From contig JACKIM010000003.1 in NCBI GenBank assembly GCA_020638465.1, positions 34,675-98,674 of the forward strand: 64,000 bases of DNA, read 5' to 3'. Source of the DNA: Geminicoccaceae bacterium. GTDB lineage: Bacteria > Pseudomonadota > Alphaproteobacteria > Geminicoccales > Geminicoccaceae. The notes under the pieces are model-generated. The model saw only the letters and a list, made by a program, of their open reading frames with translations, made no database searches and was not told the origin of the DNA. How positions within the stretch are numbered: the stretch's first letter is position 1; each line of letters opens with the position of its first letter. A program made the translations under genes and the position numbers. This document shows positions 10,091 to 22,892 of the stretch, piece by piece.

Positions 10091-11079
10091 GCGCGACCTT
10101 CATTGCCATGCAGATGGCAACGTACGCTGACATCGCCTTCCAGCATGACCGCGTCGGGCGATTTTTGACGACAGACGGGCATGGCATGCGGGCAGCGGGT
10201 GTGAAACCGGCAGCCGGCGGGCGGGTCGATCGGCGAGGGCGGATCGCCGTCGAGCCTGATGCGCGCCGACGATCCGGCATGGGTCTTCGGTGCCGCGGAA
10301 ATGAGTGCCTGCGTATAGGGATGGCTGGGCTGGGCGATGACCCGTCTGGCGGGACCGGTCTCGACGATCTCGCCCAGATACATGACCGCCACACGATCGC
10401 TGACATAGCCGATGACGGCGATGTCATGACTGACGAACAGGTAGGTCAGCGACAATTCCCGGCGCAGTTCGGCCAGCAGTTCGATCACCTGGGCCTGAAT
10501 GGAGACATCCAGCGCCGACACCGGCTCGTCGCAGACGACAAGGTCCGGTTCCAGCACGAGGGCACGCGCAATGCCGATGCGCTGACGCTGTCCACCGGAG
10601 AACTGATGGGGGAAACGCTGGAGCATCTCGTGCGACAGGCCGACCCGACCCGCGATCGCGACAACCTTGCGCCGGATGACGTCAGCATCGCGCTCGCCAT
10701 GCAGCTTCAAGGGACGGGCGATGATGGAAAAGACGTTCTGCCGCGGGTTCAGCGAGGCATAGGGATCCTGGAAAATGATCTGCATGCGCCGTCGCAACGC
10801 CTTGAGCTGCGACGCATCGGCCCCGGTGACGTCCTCACCGTCGAGCTCCACCGTTCCACCCGTGGGCTCCAGCAGCCGCAGCAGGGTCCGCCCCAGCGTC
10901 GACTTCCCGCACCCGCTCTCGCCGATCAGGCCCAGCGTCTCTCCGCGGGCCATGCTCAGGTCTACGCCATCCACGGCCCGAACCGCATGCCCCGGGCGCC
11001 CGATGAGCCTGCCGAACATGCTGCCACCGATCTCGTAATGCTTGGTCAATCCTCTCACACGCAGAAAGGTCTCGCTCAT
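10087..11079 (-). CDS. Peptide/opine ABC transporter ATP-binding protein (DppF/OppF type)
   Basis: Track ORF 10087..11532 trimmed to [11 protein letters not shown] at 11079 (ATGA overlap with the upstream gene). Walker [10 protein letters not shown], signature FSGGQRQR, C-terminal CRFHTRCP oligopeptide domain. Confidence 0.9.
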   Translation of the reverse strand: MSETFLRVRGLTKHYEIGGSMFGRLIGRPGHAVRAVDGVDLSMARGETLGLIGESGCGKSTLGRTLLRLLEPTGGTVELDGEDVTGADASQLKALRRRMQIIFQDPYASLNPRQNVFSIIARPLKLHGERDADVIRRKVVAIAGRVGLSHEMLQRFPHQFSGGQRQRIGIARALVLEPDLVVCDEPVSALDVSIQAQVIELLAELRRELSLTYLFVSHDIAVIGYVSDRVAVMYLGEIVETGPARRVIAQPSHPYTQALISAAPKTHAGSSARIRLDGDPPSPIDPPAGCRFHTRCPHAMPVCRQKSPDAVMLEGDVSVRCHLHGNEGRA

Positions 11080-13948: not shown

Positions 13949-15490
13949 TCAGCCGTCGACACAGGCATCATGCAGGTTGATGCGGCTGTCCGCGCTGGGC
14001 TGCCATCCGCTAACCCTCTTCGAGACGCCGTAGACATCCTGCGGAACCCACAGGAAGACCATCGGCACGTCCTTTTGCACCAGATCCTGCGCCTGAATGT
14101 AGAGCTGCATGCGTTTGTCGGCATCGGTTTCCGTCGAGGCGGCCGTCAACAGCCCGTCCAGTTCGGGATTGGCATATCCGCTCGAATTGCCGCGCGCATC
14201 CGTCATCAATACCGGGTTGAAGATATCGTAGGGATCGAGCGTACCGTTCCCCCACGAGGTGAACCACATGTCGCCTTCGCGCACCTTGGCACCCTCGGTC
14301 CGCCACTTGTCGACCAGCTGCGACCCCTCGCCCACCTGCACGGTGGTGCGGATGCCGGCCTTGGTGAGCAGCGATGCGACGGCCTCGGCAATGTCCTTGA
14401 AGGCGCCCTCCACGTCCATGGTCACGTCGATACCGTCACCCAGCCCCGCCTCTTCGAGCAGCGAAGCGGTCTTGTCCGGGTCGTAGGGATGTCCCGCCAG
14501 CGCGGGATCGAAGGCGAAGGCATCGGGGCTGAGGATGCCCTCGATCGGCACCGCCAGGCCGTTGAGGATCTTGTCGATCACCAGTTGCTTGTCGATGGCA
14601 TGGGCCAGTGCCTCGCGCACCTTCACATTGTCGAAGGGCGGCTTTTCCATGTTGAGGGCGATGTAGAAACTGCGCGTTCCGTTGACGGTCATCACCTTCG
14701 CATTGTCACTGTTCTCGACCGTGGCAATGTCCGACGGCGGCAGCTCGTTGATGATGTCGACATCGCCGGCCAGGAGTGCTGCCACGCGCGAGGAGCTTTC
14801 GGGAATGATCTGGAAGATCGCCCGCTCGACGCAGGCCGGACCCACGGGCGGGATCTCGGTGGAACCGCCGTAATAGTCGTCGTAACGGTCCATGATGACC
14901 GCCTCGCCCTTGCGCCACTCCGCGAGCCTGAACGGCCCGGTGCCGTTTTCCCTTTCCGCGAGCCCGCCCGGACCGGCAGCCTCGGTGAAACTTTTGGAGA
15001 CGACCTCCTGAAACGGCAGCATGGCCGGCAGGATCGGCCACGGCTCGGACAGCCTGAAGCGGACGGTCGAATCGTCGACTGCCTCGACATCGACCAGCGG
15101 GCCGAGCAGGCCCTTGCGCGGGCTCGTCTGGCCATCCATCGCATTCTCGTCGATCAGCCGATGGAAGGTGAAGGCGACATCACCGGCCGTGAGCGGAGAA
15201 CCGTCGTGGAAGGTCACGCCGGAGCGCAGCTTCGCCTCCCAGGTGGTGGGATCGACCTGCGTGAAGCTTTCGGCGAGCTGCGGCACGACCTGCATGTTCG
15301 CATCGCGGGTCACGACGCCGTCATACATGTTGCGCAGGATGGTCTCGGTCTCGCGCTTGCGATGGTTGGCGGGGTCGAGCGTCAGCGCATCGAGGGTAAA
15401 GCCAACCTTGATCTCGCTGGCATGAAGGTCGCCGGCCGCCGCACCGGCCATGACGGCCAGCGCCAGCAAGGATGTCGAAAGCCTTCTCAT
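13949..15490 (-). CDS. ABC transporter substrate-binding protein, family 5 (peptide/nickel/opine)
   Basis: 513 aa. Signal peptide MRRLSTSLLALAVMAGAAAG. First gene of the minus-strand operon. Confidence 0.9.
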   Translation of the reverse strand: MRRLSTSLLALAVMAGAAAGDLHASEIKVGFTLDALTLDPANHRKRETETILRNMYDGVVTRDANMQVVPQLAESFTQVDPTTWEAKLRSGVTFHDGSPLTAGDVAFTFHRLIDENAMDGQTSPRKGLLGPLVDVEAVDDSTVRFRLSEPWPILPAMLPFQEVVSKSFTEAAGPGGLAERENGTGPFRLAEWRKGEAVIMDRYDDYYGGSTEIPPVGPACVERAIFQIIPESSSRVAALLAGDVDIINELPPSDIATVENSDNAKVMTVNGTRSFYIALNMEKPPFDNVKVREALAHAIDKQLVIDKILNGLAVPIEGILSPDAFAFDPALAGHPYDPDKTASLLEEAGLGDGIDVTMDVEGAFKDIAEAVASLLTKAGIRTTVQVGEGSQLVDKWRTEGAKVREGDMWFTSWGNGTLDPYDIFNPVLMTDARGNSSGYANPELDGLLTAASTETDADKRMQLYIQAQDLVQKDVPMVFLWVPQDVYGVSKRVSGWQPSADSRINLHDACVDG

Positions 15491-15600
15491 CGTCTCTCTC
15501 CCTCATGTTACATGGCCTGCATCGTTCCGCGGCCGCGACACCGTCGGCAACATCACGGCTGTCGCCGGAACCCGGCCGCGGAGCCAGGCTGCCTCCTGCA

Positions 15601-15616
15601 TGGCACACGACCTGCG
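15601..15616 (+). promoter_or_regulatory. Second -24/-12-like element TGGCACACGACCTGCG, facing the minus-strand promoter
   Basis: GG-N10-GC spacing is correct, with one mismatch to consensus (CTGC instead of TTGC). Points toward the GntR/ABC operon starting near 15939. Confidence 0.35.
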
Positions 15617-15627
15617 AAAACCAAAAA

Positions 15628-15643
15628 AGCAAGAGGCGTGCCA
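15628..15643 (-). promoter_or_regulatory. Sigma-54 (-24/-12) promoter, 5'-TGGCACGCCTCTTGCT-3' on the minus strand
   Basis: Plus strand reads AGCAAGAGGCGTGCCA. The reverse complement matches the TGGCAC-N5-TTGCW consensus exactly. It lies about 138 nt upstream of the SBP start (15490), and a sigma-54 activator is encoded in the same operon. Confidence 0.65.
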
Positions 15644-15828
15644 GACGCAAGGGGCGATTGGAAAAACCTGGCCAAAACCTTCAAATTCCCTTGGGACAGG
15701 CGTCTCCGGAGCAGAAATTCCGCACTTCACCGCAATATCGCATGCGTGATCTTGACGCCATTCTGTACCCGGGATGCGCGCATTGCACTCAATAACGGAA
15801 ACAGGACCGCCCCATGCGACGCATCCTC

Positions 15829-15892
15829 CCCTGCGATGAGGCAAGCCACGGCTTGCCAGGCCCTGCGATGAGACAAGCCACGGCTTGCCAAG
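15829..15892. repeat. Two tandem 32-bp repeats, each containing the palindrome GGCAAGCC-AC-GGCTTGCC (candidate enhancer/operator)
   Basis: CCCTGCGATGAGGCAAGCCACGGCTTGCCAGG followed directly by CCCTGCGATGAGACAAGCCACGGCTTGCCAAG, with 2 mismatches. It lies 186-249 bp upstream of the minus-strand -24 element and about 47 bp upstream of the GntR start. Confidence 0.8.
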
Positions 15893-15938
15893 TCCGGTCG
15901 ATGGCGTTATGGCGGTACCAATTCAGGAATGGTCCCGT

Positions 15939-16676
15939 ATGGGAGGATCGCCGCAGTTCATGTCGATGGTCGGCCATAACCGCAACAATTCGAGCATTGC
16001 CCTGGCAGCGCTGCGCCAATGGCTGGCTCAGGATGGCCGTGTACCTGGAGACCGGCTTCCCCCCGAGCGGGAAATGGCCGAGCAATTCGAGGTCGGCAGG
16101 CGTTCCCTGCGTCGCGCGCTGGATGTCCTCGAAGCCGAAGGCCAGGTCTGGCGTCATCAGGGCAAGGGGACCTTCATCGGCGTGATGCCCTATCCCGCCG
16201 AACCGCCCGTCGCCGAGATCGCCGCTGCGACGGGGCCCGCCGACATCATGACGGCCCGCCTCGCCATCGAACCGGAGCTGGCCGCCCTCTGCTGCCGGTC
16301 CGCCGAGCCGGCGGATATCGTCCGCATGCGCTATCTCGCCAAGCGCATCGATGCCACCCGCGATCCCGATGCGGCCGAACTGTGGGACAGCGCATTGCAT
16401 CGCCTGATTGCCTGGGCGGCCGGCAATCCCCTGCTGCTGGCCAGCTTTGCCCTGGTGGACGAGATCCGGCAGCAGGACGAGTGGCGCGACCTCCGCGAAC
16501 AGGCCCGCAACGCCGAGAGCCGGGCCCTTTCCGGCCGCCAGCACCGGGAAATCATCGACGCCATCGCCATGCGCGATGCCGATGCCGCACGCCGCGCCAT
16601 GCGCGCTCACCTGAGCAGCCTTGCCGAAAGGCTGGACGACATCATCGGGGCACCCTTCGTGGACACGTTGCGATGA
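15939..16676 (+). CDS. GntR/FadR family transcriptional regulator
   Basis: wHTH LPPEREMAEQFEVGRRSLRRALDVLEAEG plus a FadR-type helical C-terminal domain. Start is uncertain: in-frame candidates at 15885, 15939 and 15960. Confidence 0.85.
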   Translation: MGGSPQFMSMVGHNRNNSSIALAALRQWLAQDGRVPGDRLPPEREMAEQFEVGRRSLRRALDVLEAEGQVWRHQGKGTFIGVMPYPAEPPVAEIAAATGPADIMTARLAIEPELAALCCRSAEPADIVRMRYLAKRIDATRDPDAAELWDSALHRLIAWAAGNPLLLASFALVDEIRQQDEWRDLREQARNAESRALSGRQHREIIDAIAMRDADAARRAMRAHLSSLAERLDDIIGAPFVDTLR

Positions 16677-22169: not shown

Positions 22170-22892
22170 TCAGGCGGGGGCGTCGCGAAGAAAGGACGTG
22201 CCGTCGGCTGTGGAATTGTCCGGCGGTGCGGGAACCGTCCCGGCCGCCGGGGCGTGGGCTGCTTTCGCCGCGTCGCGTTCCGCCGACAGTGCCGTGCCGG
22301 CGGCCAGCAGCAGGGCGTGAATGTGGCCGGTCAGCCTGCACAGGAGACGGCGGCGGCCGCGGGCACGTTGCAGCGCCGTCTGGTGCTCCGGGTCCTGCCG
22401 CAGTTCGCGGATGCGTTCGGTTGACGGCACGGGATGTTCCCCGGTGCGGGAACGCGATCGCGCAGGTTGATCCATCCGCCGCAGCACGCTGTCCAGCAGG
22501 GCCTCCAGCGGGCGATAGCCGCGCTTCTGGGTTGCCCAGCGCAGCCATTCCAGCTCGTCACGGTTGTCCTCGCCGGCGAAGTGGAACAGGTGCTGGCACA
22601 GTTCGGCAAACCACGGGCGCGCCCGGTCGGCGAGGAAGGCGCGCAGCCCGTCGCGGCCATCGGCGGCGAGGCATTCGAGCGCCATGATCAGTGTCCGGAC
22701 GGTCTCCGGGAGGAGCCGGTCATCGCCGGGCGGGTCCATGTCGCGACAGCCCGCCACCTCCGGTTCCGCCTGCCGCCCGGTGGCCCGCAGCCAGGCGAAC
22801 CGCAACAGTCGTGCCAACCCCCAACGCGAGATCCGCCGCGCCAGCCTCAACGGACGCGTCATGGAATCTGCAGGTGTGGGGTTGGTCGACAT
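22170..22892 (-). CDS. Hypothetical Arg-rich protein, paralogue of 61452..62228
   Basis: Track ORF 22170..23075 trimmed to MSTNPTPADSMTRPLRLARRISRWG at 22892, because the upstream part is low-GC and the paralogue starts at the equivalent residue. I recognised no known domain. Confidence 0.6.
   Translation of the reverse strand: MSTNPTPADSMTRPLRLARRISRWGLARLLRFAWLRATGRQAEPEVAGCRDMDPPGDDRLLPETVRTLIMALECLAADGRDGLRAFLADRARPWFAELCQHLFHFAGEDNRDELEWLRWATQKRGYRPLEALLDSVLRRMDQPARSRSRTGEHPVPSTERIRELRQDPEHQTALQRARGRRRLLCRLTGHIHALLLAAGTALSAERDAAKAAHAPAAGTVPAPPDNSTADGTSFLRDAPA

Follow-up and report, generated by a model that had tools for sequence, protein, structure and literature searches.

Within the 64,000-nt stretch of DNA that was analysed (the window), a 448-bp intergenic gap (15491–15938) separates two divergent operons. 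The minus-strand operon encodes a solute-binding protein (SBP), two permeases, two ATPases, a C45/AAT-family enzyme, a sensor-less sigma-54 activator and two more genes, with the activator gene sitting inside the operon. On the plus strand, a GntR/FCD regulator gene (gntR) heads a second peptide-type ABC operon. The gap holds a pair of sigma-54-like elements at 15601–15643, reading TGGCACACGACCTGCG-AAAACCAAAAA-AGCAAGAGGCGTGCCA, and the region is best explained as the control region of a sigma-54-dependent operon. We refer to the minus-strand element as the right arm and to the plus-strand element as the left arm (Table 1).

The initial annotation described the pair as TGGCACACGACCTGCG-N11-AGCAAGAGGCGTGCCA, which matches the window letter for letter. 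Its account of the arms also holds: the right arm is a perfect TGGCAC-N5-TTGCT on the minus strand, and the left arm is TGGCAC-N5-CTGC on the plus strand (TGGCAC-N5-CTGCG over its full 16 nt) with GG-N10-GC spacing. The spacing between the arms had been given both as N11 and as 12 bp; N11 stands and 12 bp does not, the two 16-mers being 11 nt apart and the two 15-mers 13 nt apart. The distance from the left arm to gntR, put at about 320 nt, measures 323 nt to the ATG at 15939.

Table 1. Features of the intergenic gap and of the genes that flank it, in window coordinates
Feature	Coordinates	Strand	Details
Sensor-less sigma-54 activator, 324 aa	8064..9038	-	AAA+ sigma-54 interaction domain and HTH_8 only; Pfam PF00158, E 2e-61
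Family-5 periplasmic solute-binding protein, first gene of the operon	13949..15490	-	Pfam SBP_bac_5, E 5e-86
5' leader of the SBP mRNA, about 125 nt	15491..15616	-	predicted start ~15617
Left arm: sigma-54-like site TGGCACACGACCTGCG, probably fortuitous	15601..15616	+	GG 15602-15603, GC 15614-15615
A/T-rich 11-nt segment AAAACCAAAAA between the arms	15617..15627	.	holds both predicted starts
Right arm: sigma-54 -24/-12 promoter TGGCACGCCTCTTGCT of the SBP/ABC/C45/activator operon	15628..15643	-	GG 15642-15641, GC 15630-15629
Candidate activator dyads	15711..15788	-	GCGGAATTTCTGC (15711-15723); TCACGCA-N8-TGCGGTGA (15727-15749); GTGCAATGCGCGCAT (15774-15788)
Two tandem 32-bp units, each with palindrome CAAGCC-AC-GGCTTG	15829..15892	.	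gntR side
Candidate GntR operator ACCAATTCAGGAATGGT	15917..15933	.	just before the gntR start codon
Divergent GntR/FCD regulator gene, heads a second peptide-type ABC operon	15939..16676	+	Pfam GntR and FCD

The SBP leader contains a long hairpin with arms at 15519–15535 and 15573–15589. The leader sequence occurs once in the genome, which rules out the hairpin as a repeated element. An Rfam search of 15300–16100 gave no credible match, and no relatives of the intergenic region were found in a plasmid collection. The juxtaposition of gntR and the SBP operon is specific to this lineage: a GntR homologue adjoins the SBP operon only in two other loci (L154 and L155).

We identify the right arm with high confidence as the genuine sigma-54 promoter, conserved among orthologues, of an operon for nutrient uptake whose genes include that of its own activator. 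Its orientation, its distance from the SBP gene, the presence of a cognate activator in the operon and its conservation in 12 of 12 orthologous operons all argue for this, and the reading of this element as a sigma-54 promoter in the initial annotation is thus supported. Orthologous SBP operons were gathered from genome, metagenome and assembly collections. The set of 12 spans 57–78% protein identity and includes Stappia, Oricola, Maritimibacter, Microvirga and Marinobacterium. Each orthologue has exactly one strong site, 56–112 nt before the start codon. The site reads TGGCA[CT]-N5-TTGC in ten of them; the two variants have TGGCGT (L148) and TGGCCT (L010). At the three loci with enough downstream DNA (L007, L008 and L010), the operon continues with the same C45 gene and, after it, the gene for the same short activator. 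The same operon with the short activator was found in Microvirga, Marinobacterium and a gammaproteobacterial metagenome-assembled genome. In Maritimibacter sp. HL-12, the orthologous SBP operon and its sigma-54 promoter are immediately preceded by an rpoN gene of 445 aa (L153:921–2258); the operon looks as though it carried a dedicated sigma factor along with it.

Some candidate comparators were set aside. Family-level and Paraburkholderia homologues at 53–58% identity are not comparable because they lack an upstream sigma-54 site; none was found upstream in L059, L060, L063, L009, L038, L061 or L062. In the upstream DNA of L059, L060 and L063, the SBP homologue instead lies behind a regulator-like gene and a CTTGAC-type promoter. 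Locus L065 (78% identity) has lost the promoter region, with an aldo-keto reductase gene ending 130 bp upstream. A metagenome scan with an SBP alignment returned almost entirely paralogues at about 30% identity and a single usable locus (L066).

Upstream of the conserved promoter, 10 of the 12 orthologues (L064, L150, L151, L152, L153, L007, L008, L146, L149 and L066) carry a dyad of the type GCGTGA-N3-5-TCACGC, located 90–195 nt upstream of the -24 T and in nine cases at 90–133 nt. This dyad is likely the binding site of the sensor-less activator. The window has three candidate counterparts, which are degenerate versions of the dyad and are centred at about -100, -121 and -164 from the predicted minus-strand start. 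The palindrome CAAGCC-AC-GGCTTG has only two copies in the genome, those in the two tandem 32-bp units, and is absent upstream of the orthologous sigma-54 promoters, so the units are more probably part of the gntR side than of the enhancer used by the activator. Closest to gntR, ACCAATTCAGGAATGGT is a candidate GntR operator; a family relative (G103; L169:2650–2667) has the similar ACCAATCTGTCGATTGGT in front of its gntR orthologue.

No rpoN gene was found in the five-contig assembly, which is rated 100% complete. A genome of the same genus has rpoN, in the order RNase D-like, kdsD, lptA, lptB, rpoN, ptsN, hprK, rapZ ... ahcY. In our assembly, the RNase D-like and KdsD orthologues lie at 1999171–2001010 of the 2001765-bp contig C2, at its very end, and LptB, RpoN, PtsN, HprK, RapZ, AhcY and a TsaE-like protein are all missing. 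By comparison of gene order, rpoN and its missing neighbours would lie just past the end of C2, so that a gap in the assembly is a likelier reason for their absence than loss of sigma-54. The genome encodes seven true sigma-54 activators. The 16-mer TGGCACGCCTCTTGCT also occurs, identical, at C2:1219804–1219819 (+), about 85 nt upstream of a flgI-like gene, which suggests that the organism has sigma-54-dependent flagellar genes. At C2:823586–823638 (+), an intergenic region has two sigma-54-like sites on the same strand, TGGCACGCCGGTCGCT and TGGCACGCTCCTTGCT, 38 bp apart. A dispersed repeat containing CGATGGCACGTCTTTGGCTTTCA is present at 12 places in the genome (for example C1:132632, C1:681304 and C2:595557) and scores as sigma-54-like despite GGC replacing TGC at -12; the repeat probably belongs to an insertion sequence or a comparable element.

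On balance, we take the left arm to be a fortuitous, weaker look-alike in the leader of the operon, specific to this lineage. The initial annotation had judged that two copies so close together were unlikely to be accidental. This is not supported by the orthologues, in which the minus-strand element alone is conserved: a search of the whole 500 bp before the gene found an antisense site of comparable quality in none of the 12, an outcome that the initial annotation had itself named as refuting. Their lack of a left arm is not decisive, because the divergent gntR operon is missing from these orthologues as well. Relative to the promoter, the left arm is on the operon side and occupies about +1 to +17 of a fast-evolving minus-strand leader. 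Orthologue leaders are 30–60 nt shorter than that of the window and cannot be aligned with it, even in the 78%-identical orthologue. Three near-identical loci of the same species-level lineage (L154, L155 and L156) have both arms unchanged, together with the divergent gntR. These say nothing about constraint, because their intergenic DNA is 99–100% identical to the window, with 0–5 substitutions in 470 bp (five in L155, none of them in the 43 bp of the pair).

The left arm keeps the GG-N10-GC core and TGGCAC; its base at -15 is C and its base at -11 is G. Among the family promoters, -15 is T in 12 of 12 cases and -11 is T, A or G; the combination of T at -15/-14 with A or T at -11 is absent from the left arm. 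C at positions -15 to -17 marks weak formers of closed complexes, such as Klebsiella nifH. With C at -15 and G at -11, the left arm should bind holoenzyme less well than the right arm.

Scoring both sites with a position weight matrix, a check proposed in the initial annotation, bore out the right arm and went against the left. With a log-odds matrix built from the 12 orthologous promoters, the right arm scores 16.4 bits, a score reached by 24 genome sites of which 12 are copies of one dispersed repeat. The left arm scores 7.8 bits, reached by 1931 genome sites, and loses mainly at the C at -15, the G at -11 and the spacer. A crude consensus score gives 20.4 for the right arm (14 genome sites) and 19.2 for the left (128 genome sites). 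The true rank of the left arm lies somewhere between the crude score and the matrix, because the matrix is small and over-fits the spacer. In bound Escherichia coli sigma-54 sites, five bases rarely vary (GG and TGC), and motif score tracks binding in vivo (PMC4591121). The left arm may well bind holoenzyme, as it keeps all five. ChIP-seq in E. coli also shows that many sigma-54 sites are bound yet inactive or non-functional (PMC4591121).

How often such a pair arises by chance can be estimated from the 4.6-Mb genome. TGGCAC-N5-NTGC has 78 matches on both strands (8.5e-6 per strand-position), and about 0.008 are expected in a 448-bp gap. The initial estimate of under 1% for one gap was accurate, as a figure that ignores multiple testing. 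Seen for this gap alone, an expectation of about 0.01 speaks against a coincidence. By the crude consensus score, with 14 top-scoring sites and 128 sites at or above the left arm, about 0.04–0.08 partners within 50–100 bp of a top site are expected per genome. The 42 genome sites matching TGGCAC-N5-YTGC give an expectation of about 0.002 inward-facing pairs with a gap of 5–25 nt per genome. A coincidence of one in 500 genomes is expected in a scan of this size, and chance therefore suffices for the pair. The looser pattern TGG[CT]A[CT]-N5-NTGC shows no enrichment outside genes: by our own classifier, 26% of its 198 genome matches are non-coding, against 26% of the genome.

The window itself has three matches to TGGCAC-N6-TGC compared with 1.0 expected, and three were reached in 9 of 100 shuffles. 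The third match, TGGCACGACTGTTGC at 22802–22816 (-), lies about 25 codons inside the ORF starting at 22892; it is either a chance or intragenic site, or a sign that the gene start is mis-set. Among 400 other genomes of the class, none has an inward-facing pair with a gap of 8–25 nt, in agreement with the chance rate of about 0.002 per genome. One of the 400 (G502) has two pairs with a 6-nt gap on the phage-like contig C60 (L176:9190–9225 and 10423–10458).

If transcription begins at the usual distance of 12 nt past the C of the GC at -12, the plus-strand start would be at about 15627 and the minus-strand start at about 15617, 10 bp apart. Each promoter would then lie within the first transcribed bases of the other, and both would open one common A/T-rich stretch of 11 bp. 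A sigma-54 closed complex has a footprint of -34 to -5. Two such footprints would meet at 15622, so that two enzymes could hardly coexist, and competition between two holoenzymes for the pair is a reasonable inference. The start sites had been described in the initial annotation as overlapping head-on, which does not follow from this geometry: the predicted RNAs diverge without overlap. The label 'face-to-face' does not fit either. Under the published definitions of 'overlapping' and 'face-to-face' divergent promoters, the pair belongs to the 'overlapping' class (PMC5175336).

If the left arm is not fortuitous, the 43-bp element might be a two-way sigma-54 promoter or switch, which we consider unlikely. 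Both arms would be functional, holoenzyme would bind in either orientation over a shared A/T-rich core, and activator bound at 15711–15788 would fire whichever orientation is occupied. Taken as a promoter, such an element would doubtfully co-induce the SBP operon (leftwards from ~15617) and the gntR/second ABC operon (rightwards from ~15627, with a 312-nt leader). Taken as a switch, it is no less doubtful that the activator would fire either uptake or the gntR/second ABC operon, or that a wrong-way complex would throttle positive feedback. Consistent with two-way use, both arms have GG-N10-GC with TGGCAC, the arms flank one common A/T-rich segment as those of a designed two-way promoter would, and no terminator-like site was found between 15300 and 16100. 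A start spacing of 10 bp is also common at sigma-70 bidirectional promoters (PMC12825309). The left arm is about 90–160 bp from the likely activator sites, within looping range, and a non-functional sigma-54 site close to an activator site has been argued to be very unlikely by chance (PMC4591121). The gntR orthologue of the family relative G103 has TGGTATCAGGTTTGCA 137 nt upstream; however, that site overlaps a half-site of a likely GntR operator, and no activator gene lies within 17 kb of it. Two-way use is further opposed by the poor score of the left arm and its absence in all 12 orthologues, and a rightward polymerase would have to pass through bound activator. By eye, the DNA nearer to gntR than the left arm offers that gene a sigma-70-like CTTGCC-N17-TTATGG of its own, along with an operator-like dyad.

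Alternatively, the left arm could be a selected competitor, where holoenzyme bound the wrong way occludes the real promoter and damps the positive feedback of the activator; we think this rather improbable. The activator is encoded within its own target operon, and the bulk of enzymes whose predicted closed-complex footprints meet at 15622 would be expected to clash. In the part of PMC4591121 that cites Zafar 2014, sigma-54 holoenzyme is described as forming stable inactive complexes that can repress overlapping promoters, and competition between RNA polymerases has been demonstrated at symmetric sigma-70 promoters (PMC12825309). Yet the left arm is not conserved in orthologues with the same feedback layout, as the weaker arm it would lose a competition for holoenzyme, and intragenic sites showed no roadblock effect (PMC4591121). 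Any reading in which the pair is selected gains from the phage contigs described below, where palindromic sigma-54-type pairs appear to be under selection, although their geometry differs. It is very improbable that the quasi-palindrome is instead the operator of a dimeric regulator, such as the neighbouring GntR, with a left side unrelated to sigma-54. The two arms are complementary at 11 of 15 positions and lie beside a regulator gene, but as a plain inverted repeat the pair is unremarkable: the same gap has six of comparable length and complementarity, the pair and five others. A typical dimer would not span the 28 bp between the arm centres, and a better GntR-type dyad lies at 15917–15933. 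The matching positions of the pair are only the sigma-54 consensus bases and two spacer bases. A cruciform or plain-palindrome reading was rejected because the matches are confined to consensus bases.

With a genuine right arm and a fortuitous left arm, the region would work as follows. Sigma-54 RNA polymerase would bind the right arm on the minus strand (15643–15628) as a closed complex. The activator encoded by the operon would bind the dyads about 100–165 bp upstream, loop to the polymerase and open the A/T-rich segment, and transcription would begin near 15617 and proceed leftwards. The left arm would have arisen as a near-consensus match in the fast-evolving leader of one lineage. If it is bound at all, the two orientations should be mutually exclusive, and the left arm could at most account for a small part of the occupancy or produce some minor transcript, dependent on the activator, in the direction of gntR.

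As it stands, the finding matters little. It contributes one sigma-54 promoter, whose activator-site motif is conserved, to an operon family that is unstudied but widespread, and the mirror element is probably noise. Should the left arm prove active, two opposed sites over a single core would, given how long sigma-54 closed complexes live, make a clean natural test of orientation competition, of which no sigma-54 example is known.

The known system closest to the right arm is PspF at pspA of E. coli, where a sensor-less activator acts from sites upstream of a canonical sigma-54 promoter. Both have a promoter with -24 GG and -12 GC, dyads about 100–160 bp upstream, and an activator made of AAA+ and HTH domains without an N-terminal sensor. 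In the window, by contrast, the activator is encoded within its own target operon, which carries a peptide-type ABC importer and enzymes as cargo, and no partner is known to restrain the activator.

Divergent sigma-54 promoter pairs that share activator sites exist at hycA/hypA and zraP/zraSR in E. coli. Like them, the window has two sigma-54-type elements in one intergenic region between oppositely oriented operons. The E. coli promoters stand back-to-back on either side of the activator sites, whereas the elements here face inwards, each within the region that would be transcribed from the other.

The left arm also resembles the non-productive sigma-54 sites of E. coli, many of which are regarded as noise (Bonocora et al. 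2015, PMC4591121), in having a good motif where a promoter is not expected. By analogy, it is probably either unbound or occupied by an inactive complex. Unlike the intragenic sites of that study, it lies in a leader, 11 bp from an opposed real promoter and near activator sites, and for these reasons it could be activated.

At symmetric sigma-70 bidirectional promoters, starts diverge by 10–23 bp and one polymerase binds at a time (Warman et al., bioRxiv 10.1101/2020.01.31.928960; PMC12825309). The window pair would be similarly opposed over a common melted core, with starts predicted 10 bp apart. The sigma-70 promoters differ in sharing a -10 hexamer and depending on sigma-70, and two-way transcription is hypothetical for the window pair. 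Sigma-54 is not mentioned in PMC12825309, and we found no sigma-54 counterpart of these promoters described in the literature.

Parallels also occur in phages. We searched IMG/VR for TGGCAC-N5-YTGC on both strands facing inward, allowing a gap of 3–16 nt. Pairs of the form TGGCAC-N5-TTGC / gap / GCAA-N5-GTGCCA occur on at least 120 phage contigs (L177–L296, for example L180:8262–8392, L229:55–227, L226:418–596 and L216:3661–3779), none of which matches a named phage. Among the matches listed, the gap is 3–7 nt in 134 of 145 pairs, both arms have TTGC in 127 of 145, and the N5 spacers are no more complementary than random sequence (most commonly at one of five positions). Because the spacers are not complementary, the symmetry of the phage pairs is confined to sigma-54 consensus bases. 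The pairs often form arrays with a period of 43–54 bp. In L180, such an array takes up the whole space separating a block of small leftward genes from the terminase and portal genes, which run rightward. Judged by their sequence, these pairs are candidates for two-way sigma-54 promoters or holoenzyme traps, and only a single orientation could be occupied at any moment. Tandem same-strand TGGCAC-N5-YTGC pairs are as frequent, on at least 120 phage contigs (L297–L369), and among the matches listed their gaps peak at 11–12 nt, or about 26–27 bp from start to start.

The window pair shares with the phage pairs the inward-facing TGGCAC-N5-YTGC on both strands and a symmetry found only in consensus bases. 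It differs in its 13-nt gap, its CTGC left arm and its single copy, and does not fit the palindromic pairs of the phage type. With their fixed short gap, the phage palindromic pairs may be a more useful lead than the pair in the window.
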